IMG/VR virus record: IMGVR_UViG_3300028586_000006
Coordinates: 1-45,518 of that record
Length of the DNA stretch: 45,518 nucleotides
Source: a virus
Strand: one strand, 5' to 3'
A model generated the notes under the pieces. That model was not told the DNA's origin. It made no database searches and saw only the letters and a list, made by a program, of their open reading frames with translations. Positions 23,753-23,910 of this stretch are shown in pieces (position 1 is the first letter of the stretch; each line of letters begins with the position of its first letter). Position numbers and translations under genes: made by a program.

Positions 23753-23777
23753 CAGTCATCGCGGCACCCGTCATGGA

Positions 23778-23853
23778 AATGGTGTCCTCGCTTGGGGCAC
23801 CGTTCTCCAGACGGTAAGGGGCGTCGCGATCCACCCTCGCGGCGCCCCTTTTT
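23778..23853 (+). ncRNA. Candidate small regulatory RNA or 3'-UTR element carrying an anti-Shine-Dalgarno 13-mer
   Basis: It has a hairpin at 23781-23801, CGTTCTCCAGACG at 23801-23813, and a terminator hairpin plus TTTTT at 23818-23853. A TTGACA lies at 23749-23754 upstream. See the findings for the five complementary RBSs. The 5' end is unknown. Confidence 0.4.
23818..23853 (+). terminator. Strong intrinsic terminator
   Basis: GGGGCGTCGCGA-tccaccc-TCGCGGCGCCCC (12 bp with one G.U), followed by TTTTT. Confidence 0.85.
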
Positions 23854-23854
23854 A

Positions 23855-23869
23855 CTTGTTGACAACAAG
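23855..23869. promoter_or_regulatory. Palindrome CTTGTTG-A-CAACAAG overlapping a TTGACA -35 box (candidate operator/promoter for the rightward replication operon)
   Basis: Read directly. TTGACA is at 23859-23864. The related TTGTTGAC recurs at 20850-20857, upstream of the Cro-like gene. Confidence 0.4.
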
Positions 23870-23910
23870 CGATTAGCGGTTCAGGTTGCCGCTGTTTCTG
23901 GAGAACAAAT

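Follow-up and report, generated by a model that had tools for sequence, protein, structure and literature searches.

Short RNAs by which phages control their own genes include the c4 antisense RNA of P1 and P7 (immI operon), whose loop sequences pair around a ribosome-binding site (RBS) and block translation, and whose seed differences correspond to heteroimmunity groups (PMC12197685; cited in PMC8201110). In P22 the sar RNA covers the RBS of ant, and sar, lambda OOP and aQ are short terminated phage RNAs that lower the translation or the stability of phage mRNAs; these RNAs, like c4, have one target each, and they are mostly true antisense RNAs (PMC12197685). Here we describe a 158-nt spacer (positions 23753-23910) in the virus record IMGVR_UViG_3300028586_000006, whose whole stretch of 45,518 nt was analysed and is called the window hereafter. 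The spacer holds a real, conserved and structured element, and on the sequence comparisons reported below we lean towards reading it as a small-RNA gene, the product of which would act in trans as an anti-RBS RNA and repress the translation of early genes. The RNA stretch that pairs with the targets is termed the seed, and the extended RBS motif that the seed recognises is termed the address.

The closest mechanistic relative is c4, with which the predicted RNA shares small size, a position just upstream of a target and the same direction of transcription. The spacer seed (23801-23813) complements and co-varies with the RBS of the next gene (23897-23906), as in c4-type encoding, and the seeds of the window type and of a relative, L003, would be analogous to the c4 specificity groups. 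c4, which is cut from a longer transcript by RNase P, serves lysogenic immunity through one target (icd/ant), whereas at least eight targets are predicted here across the early region. Nor does the spacer belong to the c4 family: no Rfam homology was detected, no icd/antirepressor operon was recognised, and the downstream genes have no Pfam or PHROG function. The sar, OOP and aQ RNAs are encoded on the opposite strand of a single target, to which they are fully complementary, whereas the spacer RNA is located apart from most of its predicted targets and would use a seed of 10-13 nt.

T4 RegA is a translational repressor, and T4 RegB an endoribonuclease that cuts GGAG in early Shine-Dalgarno (SD) sequences. 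As proposed for the spacer, an early product of the phage there acts on many early mRNAs at their initiation regions and silences them in the course of infection. Both T4 factors are proteins, whereas here an RNA would recognise its targets by Watson-Crick pairing with a phage-specific RBS extension. To our knowledge, proteins such as these two are the only agents for which a global shut-off of early translation has been described. The CcsR 'cuckoo' RNAs, RoxS/RsaE and RNAIII-type RNAs also pair with many SD regions through CUCC loops and end at a Rho-independent terminator, but these bacterial anti-SD small RNAs (sRNAs) use the generic SD sequence, whereas the extension found here is private and co-evolves with the seed; the CcsR1 score of the spacer is far below threshold, and the spacer is not a member of that family. 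Lambda 6S RNA and StxS are similar in that a short RNA is made from a promoter closely before a terminator, ahead of an operon. Those units need Q-mediated antitermination, and StxS acts on host mRNA; unlike them, the present locus has no Q-like gene that we could find, and its predicted targets are the phage's own early genes. A full-text literature search found no phage sRNA controlling its own early genes through a shared RBS extension; given the incomplete coverage of the search, this is absence of evidence only.

Architecture and conservation of the spacer

The spacer begins directly after the TGA stop of the upstream gene (23750-23752) and comprises the following features.

23749-23754, + strand: -35-like hexamer TTGACA of the proposed small-RNA promoter P2, overlapping the TGA stop of the upstream 48-codon gene
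23772-23777, + strand: -10-like hexamer CATGGA of P2, exactly 17 nt after the -35, a weak TATAAT match
23784-23853, + strand: predicted small RNA of ~70 nt with H1, H2 carrying the anti-SD loop, and terminator hairpin plus U tail; putative 5' end
23781-23801 (arms 23781-23787 and 23795-23801), + strand: H1, a variable apical hairpin, GGTGTCC/GGGCACC
23799-23815, + strand: H2, stem ACCGU/ACGGU and loop UCUCCAG (23804-23810), also described as a CCGT/ACGG fold
23801-23813, + strand: 13-mer seed CGTTCTCCAGACG (anti-SD), inside H2
23816-23853, + strand: Rho-independent terminator from a terminator scan, with a 14-bp GC-rich stem (to 23850), a 7-nt loop and TTTTT at 23849-23853
23859-23887, + strand: promoter-like site P3, TTGACA-N17-CAGGTT, for the downstream genes

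The seed is placed between a promoter-like TTGACA-N17-CATGGA (23749-23777) and a strong intrinsic terminator (23816-23853), and a transcript from P3 is predicted to start ~3 nt before the RBS motif of the next gene, without the anti-SD.

Homologous loci were reached through the neighbouring DUF2800/PD-(D/E)XK nuclease and a 111-aa protein. L001, L002 and L003 come from IMG/VR, L203 is a Casimicrobium metagenome-assembled genome, and L214, L216-L222, L223, L224 and L226 come from Logan, JGI and ENA assemblies. The unit is kept at the same position in 14 related contigs, though the flanks do not align by blastn, and in every locus it lies between a gene of 46-51 codons and the next gene. It reads, in order, TTGAC[AG] over the TGA stop, 17 nt, CAnnnn or TAnnnn, at most one variable hairpin, a hairpin with UCUCC in its loop, and a strong terminator. 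None of the 14 homologs has lost the -35 hexamer TTGAC[AG]; T is invariably the last base of the codon preceding the stop, despite a varying amino acid (Ala, Ser, Thr, Pro) and in a genome of ~80% GC at third codon positions, which argues for selection on the DNA hexamer itself. The distance from -35 to -10 is exactly 17 nt in all homologs and the spacer sequence between them varies, as do the -10-like hexamers (CATGGA, CATAGC, CAAGGT, CAGACG, CATCGA, TAACGG), in which only the A at position 2 is conserved. A start 7 nt after the hexamer would put the 5' end on the first hairpin base in every homolog, that is on H1 in the long forms and on H2 in the short ones. In L003 the unit stands directly on the rightward divergent promoter with no open reading frame (ORF) between, the equivalent of P2 being the rightward early promoter itself, an arrangement that points to a self-contained transcription unit of promoter, ~75-nt RNA and terminator.

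An earlier reading of this DNA from its letters alone (the sequence-only reading) had marked a hairpin, the 13-mer and a terminator in the spacer, all of which were found again, the terminator scan giving a stem of 14 pairs. It had let the transcript start at 23299 or 23749; the second now appears the better candidate, in view of the conserved exact spacing, the start on the first hairpin base and the arrangement in L003. The discrete RNA with an exposed anti-SD loop that it expected to end at 23849-23853 gains plausibility from conservation in 14 contigs and from compensatory stem changes, and the length that it gave, ~70-100 nt, comes down to ~70 nt predicted in the window and ~50 nt in the short-form relatives. 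It had seen no credible ORF in the 158 nt after the stop at 23752, and indeed no ORF is conserved there. The ATG at 23774 opens 14 codons, and a small peptide starting from this ATG in CATGGA was rejected: it has no RBS, and the motif falls in the frame TTC-TCC-AGA in some homologs and GTT-CTC-CAG in others. Since this ORF is not frame-conserved, the constraint acts on the nucleic acid. A gene on the minus strand for which the motif would be the RBS was likewise rejected, no conserved start or ORF following the motif.

The minimum-energy fold of the window RNA has three hairpins (-39.2 kcal/mol, z = -4.4). The homologous RNAs fold in the same way (z of -5.5 to -6.5), with two or three hairpins and CUCC in an apical loop, and in every fold of the predicted small RNA the seed is found in the loop of H2. 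H1 occurs in the long-form homologs in the versions GUGUCC/GGGCAC, UGCC/GGCA, CUGCC/GGCAG and CGCC/GGCG, and is absent from the short forms L001, L002, L226, L223 and L003. The H2 alignment (A4) contains five pairs, with 86% of cells paired and double changes in three of the five; one pair shows C:G, G:C, G.U, A:U and U:A, another passes from G:C to A:U. None of 500 shuffles reached the H2 covariation score and all slid controls were low. RNAalifold, run on an alignment that includes the terminator (A5), predicted both hairpins with compensatory changes in 9 of 14 consensus pairs, and the terminator stem is maintained in four unrelated sequence versions across the homologs. An Rfam scan of the window at the gathering threshold returned only tRNA, and a permissive scan of 23650-23950 returned chance-level matches only, the best of them CcsR1 (RF02791; 19.5 vs a gathering threshold of 65.3 bits).

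The covariance search in related phages that had been suggested along with the sequence-only reading was carried out: the model scores the window at 68 bits and added only L203 over ~1 Mb of related loci. The hits of a loose DNA pattern scan of viral contigs (L081-L200) were almost all due to chance, L115 (the L002 contig) being the only real one. Searching with the 111-aa protein gave none in genome contigs and only L001 and L002 in viral contigs, and a metagenome scan with the nuclease recovered mostly distant relatives, at 45% identity or less, and no further members.

More distant relatives (L015 3835-3925, L020 2883-2970, L023 8162-8250) carry a long hairpin, formed between a 13-nt anti-RBS arm and the RBS of a gene downstream of it. 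One phage has the arms CCCTCTTTTCTGG / CCAGAAAAGAGGG and another TCCTCTATTCTGG / CCAGAATAGAGGA; they differ between the two phages yet still pair, and thus co-vary. Judged from its sequence, this hairpin, which occupies another place in the genome, resembles a cis structure that sequesters an RBS.

The seed and the ribosome-binding sites of early genes

In the window, the seed has eight RBS sites with 9-13 Watson-Crick pairs, six of them with at least 10; the relatives have 2-7 RBS sites matching their own seed. The predicted targets in the window are given below.

20547-20559, - strand: RBS CGTCTGGAGAACG-tcgac-ATG (ATG 20541) of the gene identified as primase/helicase; exact 13-nt complement, duplex -25.4 kcal/mol
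17358-17369, + strand: RBS TCTGGAGAACGG of a 127-aa gene (ATG 17372); 12-nt complement, duplex -23.8 kcal/mol
23897-23906, + strand: RBS TCTGGAGAAC of the 111-aa gene (ATG 23911), the adjacent site, in cis or trans; 10-nt complement
23341-23351, + strand: RBS TCTGGAGGACG of the first gene of the rightward early promoter (ATG 23355); 11 bp with one G.U, -19.3 kcal/mol
24894-24903, + strand: RBS CTGGAGGACG of a 61-aa gene (ATG 24908); 10 bp with one G.U, -18.4 kcal/mol
27179-27188, + strand: RBS TCTGGAGAAC of an HNH endonuclease gene (GTG 27192; HNH family match); 10-nt complement
29591-29601, + strand: RBS CTGGAGAACGG of a 50-aa acidic ORF (GTG 29604) directly after the polymerase gene; 11-nt complement, -22.6 kcal/mol
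32396-32406, + strand: RBS CGTCTGGAGAA of a 53-aa ORF (ATG ~32412); 11-nt complement, -20.5 kcal/mol

The 13-mer recurs exactly on the + strand at 20547-20559, as the reverse complement of the primase-helicase RBS, just as the sequence-only reading had stated. That reading had named five sites in all, ending 3-5 nt before start codons. All five were found, with 10 nt at 23897 and 27179 as given; the complement at 17358-17369 is 12 nt long rather than 11 and that at 29591-29601 is 11 rather than 10, the sites at 32396-32406, 23341-23351 and 24894-24903 had been missed, and the distance to a start codon is 2-5 nt for six of the seven complements of at least 10 nt outside the element. Two of the functions that it attached to these sites also change. 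The site at 27179 serves the HNH gene (27192-27578), which lies directly upstream of the DNA polymerase gene and overlaps it in an ATGA stop/start (27576-27579), so that the polymerase, taken earlier for a target, would be affected only through coupling; the membrane cassette placed after 29591 is not borne out, the ORF there encoding a 50-aa acidic soluble protein. That the HNH homing-endonuclease gene carries the early RBS tag TCTGGAGAAC suggests that a mobile-type gene acquired the phage's own address.

The motif TCTGGAGAACG stands on the first cistron of each early unit, on primase, on the HNH gene and on several small early ORFs; the 127-aa gene, for instance, is the first gene after the promoter-like TTGACA at 17317. 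Late genes have ordinary short SD sequences. The calculated duplexes between seed and leader lie at -18 to -25 kcal/mol for nine early leaders, against a late-gene median of -9.9. Only the GGAG of the motif can presumably pair with the 3' end of 16S rRNA, as judged from the general 16S sequence, and for this reason the RBS extension needs another explanation. A gene of the late virion-protein region (ATG 37168, 97 aa, - strand) carries GGAGAACG at 37173-37180 with a duplex of -17.7 kcal/mol, and its leader is the only late one near the early values.

The chance of 0.001 calculated earlier for one 13-mer is sound as arithmetic but carries little weight, since exact 13-mer repeats abound in the GC-rich window (562 pairs vs ~200 in Markov shuffles). 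Seed matches with three mismatches or fewer are not enriched (25 vs 21 expected), nor is any upstream complement of an RBS in a generic search (25 vs 21 in the downstream control). It is only the specific promoter-hairpin-terminator architecture that carries signal, not generic RBS complementarity, and the real significance of the matches resides in the location of the sites, at RBSs of early genes only, and in the way relatives conserve them and co-vary.

Across several genes and lineages, seed and RBSs change together. L001 has the seed ATTCTCCAGATG, with A where all others have G (others GTTCTCCAGACG), and GGAGAATG RBSs; the matching sites are ATCTGGAGAATG, CTGGAGAGTG, CTGGAGGATG and TATCTGGAGAATGTGA, and the orthologous L002 sites read ...AACG. 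Four L001 RBSs have GGAG(A/G)(A/G)TG where others have ...CG, and ATCTGGAGAATG, the ortholog of the RBS at 23341, matches the L001 seed over 12 nt. L223 combines the seed GTTCTCCG with CGGAGAAC-type RBSs, and L226 combines TTTCTCCAA with TTGGAGAAA, the RBS of its next gene being TTGGAGAAACG (11 nt). L003, with an unrelated flank, has the seed TTCTCCGGTTGG and CCAACCGGAGAA / CCAACCGGAGA(A) RBSs at five genes; matches of 11-12 nt each occur at the first leftward gene, at the one that follows the terminator and at the nuclease gene, and two further genes make up the five. In GGAGGAC, the most frequent RBS variant, a G.U pair preserves the pairing.

When every seed was compared with every set of RBSs, those of L003 matched the L003 seed at 7 sites, the seeds of L223 and L203 at one site each, and the seeds of the window clade, L001, L002, L224 and L226 at none; L001 matched its own seed at 6 sites and others at 0-3 (6 of 9 at 2-3). 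A blind scan of the 28 nt before each of 229 terminators in ~180 related loci returned 14 stretches with at least two RBS matches, 13 of which belong to this small-RNA unit family, and the reversed-seed control returned 1. Co-variation of the 13-mer and its targets in relatives had been named in advance by the sequence-only reading as one of the points on which it could fail; seed and RBSs do co-vary, at several genes per genome. In L001, L223, L226 and L003 each seed variant finds its match in the RBSs of its own genome and not in those of others, which favours the small-RNA hypothesis.

Action in trans, action in cis and rival explanations

Both trans and cis action are likely on these comparisons, and the distal matches, the concerted changes of unlinked RBSs and the arrangement in L003 speak for trans action of the RNA as its main function. 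In all five genomes with enough sequence, the RBS that fits the seed best lies at a distance and is not that of the neighbouring gene (13 and 12 vs 10 nt in the window, 12 vs 8-9 in L002, 12-14 vs 10 with G.U in L001).

Several points weigh against a trans-acting repressor. All phages with the unit are uncultivated metagenomic contigs, and many homologs are close relatives, so that the independent covariation events amount to ~6-8 lineage changes, not dozens. As a measure of RNA against DNA recognition, G.U and A.C mismatches are about equal in number (21 vs 22), with many sites orthologous and A.C mostly at duplex ends. P2 was not called by a consensus promoter scan, its -10-like hexamer being poor, and repression as the direction of the effect is assumed from precedent. 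In a transcript from the upstream promoter, the seed of the window clade is predicted to be sequestered against CAUGGAA, a helix not conserved in L223, L224, L226 and L003. Lastly, no promoter was found between the terminator and the next genes in L001 (4553-4575) or L002 (4938-4953); replication genes there would therefore depend on terminator read-through, and given this read-through cis masking alone could be the function.

A long-range helix, CCGUC-A-UGGAGA / UCUCCA-GACGG, is favoured in the long transcript of the window and was considered as an alternative to H2. It was rejected, because it is the local H2 stem that the compensatory changes follow: in L216 and L222 H2 reads GCGU/ACGC while the upstream copy stays CCGUC, and the SD-like half of the long-range helix is absent in L223, L224, L226 and L003.

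The rival that survives best is an element acting in cis only, in which the anti-SD pairs with the next gene's RBS in read-through RNA and the first downstream cistron is translated only from P3 or conditionally; distal complementarity would then be a by-product of a shared early RBS consensus. The read-through transcripts that it supposes must exist in L001 and L002, which have no promoter after the terminator. Folded at minimum energy, read-through RNA from the window, L001 and L002 shows a helix of 9-10 bp between the seed and the adjacent SD, at the foot of the terminator hairpin, the cis action on 23897-23906 envisaged by the sequence-only reading being thus the predicted fold, and seed and adjacent RBS change together in L226, L223, L001 and L003. 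We nevertheless regard cis action alone as unlikely, since it leaves the better match of distal RBSs in five of five genomes and the lineage-specific RBS extension in at least 5-8 early genes per genome, unneeded for 16S pairing, without an account, and since the -35 kept immediately upstream at 17-nt spacing, together with the placement of the unit in L003, points to a separate short transcript.

A regulated terminator of the lambda PR'-tR' (6S RNA) type before the replication genes, overcome by an antiterminator and leaving the short RNA as a by-product, seems to us very improbable. The geometry would suit it, a promoter-like site lying 65-100 nt before a strong terminator and ahead of a long operon, and so would the need for read-through in L001 and L002. 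No antiterminator or Q-like gene was recognised among the neighbours, however, and in most homologs the terminator is followed at once by a new promoter (P3-type TTGAC[AG]-N17/18 in the window clade, L003, L203, L223, L224 and L226); the covariation of seed and RBSs at several genes would moreover be left unexplained.

Slightly less credence still is due to the view that a protein reads the motif, either a phage protein bound to TCTGGAGAACG DNA as an operator or a RegA-like repressor bound to RNA, with the spacer copy as an inverted site. The motif does lie 8-25 nt downstream of four promoter-like sites, and a co-evolving protein would also produce lineage-specific concerted change. Against this, the primase, 27179, 29591 and 32396 sites have no promoter nearby, and a protein that binds RNA would not recognise the complementary sequence. 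All copies but that in the spacer are RBSs, and the spacer copy stands in antisense, in a loop closed by a compensatory stem, between promoter and terminator; the G.U pairing kept by GGAGGAC speaks in the same sense.

An ordinary terminator-plus-promoter spacer, complementary to RBSs by chance because CUCC sequences complement SD sequences, is the least credible of all and already disfavoured: frequent exact 13-mer repeats in the window and the lack of enrichment with up to three mismatches would agree with it, but not the retention of the motif in 14 contigs with flanks beyond blastn detection, the compensatory changes both within the stem and from seed to RBS, the different seed of L003 that still matches L003 RBSs, or the reversed-seed control (1 vs 14).

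An invertible promoter switch was also considered and rejected. Repeats flank P3 in the window, but in L001 and L002 no promoter lies between the repeats, the same motif is present at many other RBSs, and no recombinase was recognised in the window protein annotation (Pfam/PHROG-type searches).

Genomic setting and proposed regulation

The window resembles a complete podovirus-like genome of ~45.5 kb, with structural and packaging genes on the - strand (1-16.9 kb and 33.9-45.2 kb) and an early and replication region at about 17.3-32.5 kb. Relatives of its DNA polymerase are found in BPP-1, BcepC6B and APSE phages (~48% amino-acid identity), and a nucleotide-level search among sequenced phages found no relative of the window. 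No integrase, repressor or antirepressor was recognised among the window genes, and Pfam and PHROG gave no function for the small proteins that flank the spacer. The cultured relative BcepC6B (L051) has an S24/LexA-type CI-like repressor (3098-3832) and a different divergent control region at the equivalent position, where no anti-RBS element was found; this suggests that the RNA unit is confined to a subgroup lacking a recognisable protein repressor. A tRNA gene at 1181-1251 (Rfam tRNA, 52.5 bits) adjoins the tail gene cluster.

Back-to-back divergent -35 hexamers, GTCAAGGGCTTGAC, form a near-palindrome at 23290-23303 and mark the divergent early promoters, and further TTGACA sites like these occur at 17317 and 23859. 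The promoter-like sites at 17317-17345, 23299-23327 and 23859-23887 and the leftward one at 23294 have in common the spacer motif (A)AAG(T)CGAT(A/T)(A)GCG, which P2 at 23749 does not have. The shared motif could be the operator for an early regulator that spares the RNA promoter.

For the small RNA itself we propose the following course. The promoter TTGACA-N17-CATGGA, with its -35 over the upstream stop codon, would start an RNA at ~23784, which the intrinsic terminator would end at 23849-23853. This stable, hairpin-only RNA would accumulate from the start of infection and present the anti-SD UCUCCAG in the loop of its middle hairpin, so that loop and stem arms, CGUUCUCCAGACG, could pair over 10-13 bp with the extended RBS motif UCUGGAGAACG. 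The phage places UCUGGAGAACG on the first cistron of each early unit, on primase and on several other early genes, and not on structural or late genes. Pairing would cover the SD sequence and thus block 30S binding, the effect being repression rather than activation, and the build-up of the RNA would shut early-gene translation, whether as negative feedback or as an early-to-late switch, leaving untagged late mRNAs unaffected. In transcripts that read through the terminator, the same seed would mask the RBS of the next gene in cis.

As a tentative extension, for which we hold somewhat less than even confidence, the phages of this group may possess a self-addressed translational regulon, in which private RBS tags on early genes are read by one phage RNA and seeds and addresses form orthogonal groups. 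The specificity groups would be a window type with UCUGGAGAACG, an L001 type with ...AAUG and an L003 type with CCAACCGGAGAA. In early shut-off such an RNA would be the RNA counterpart of T4 RegA and RegB. Early mRNAs of an infecting relative that bears the same address would be affected as well, and for this reason the RNA could also serve as an RNA-based determinant of exclusion or immunity. If the proposal is true, one small RNA that reads a phage-specific RBS extension on many early genes would represent a new way to time the lytic programme, and would explain why these RBSs are far longer than pairing with 16S rRNA requires. The seeds and RBSs would then offer natural orthogonal pairs for synthetic translational control, and the co-evolution of a regulator RNA with its regulon would be readable directly from metagenomes.

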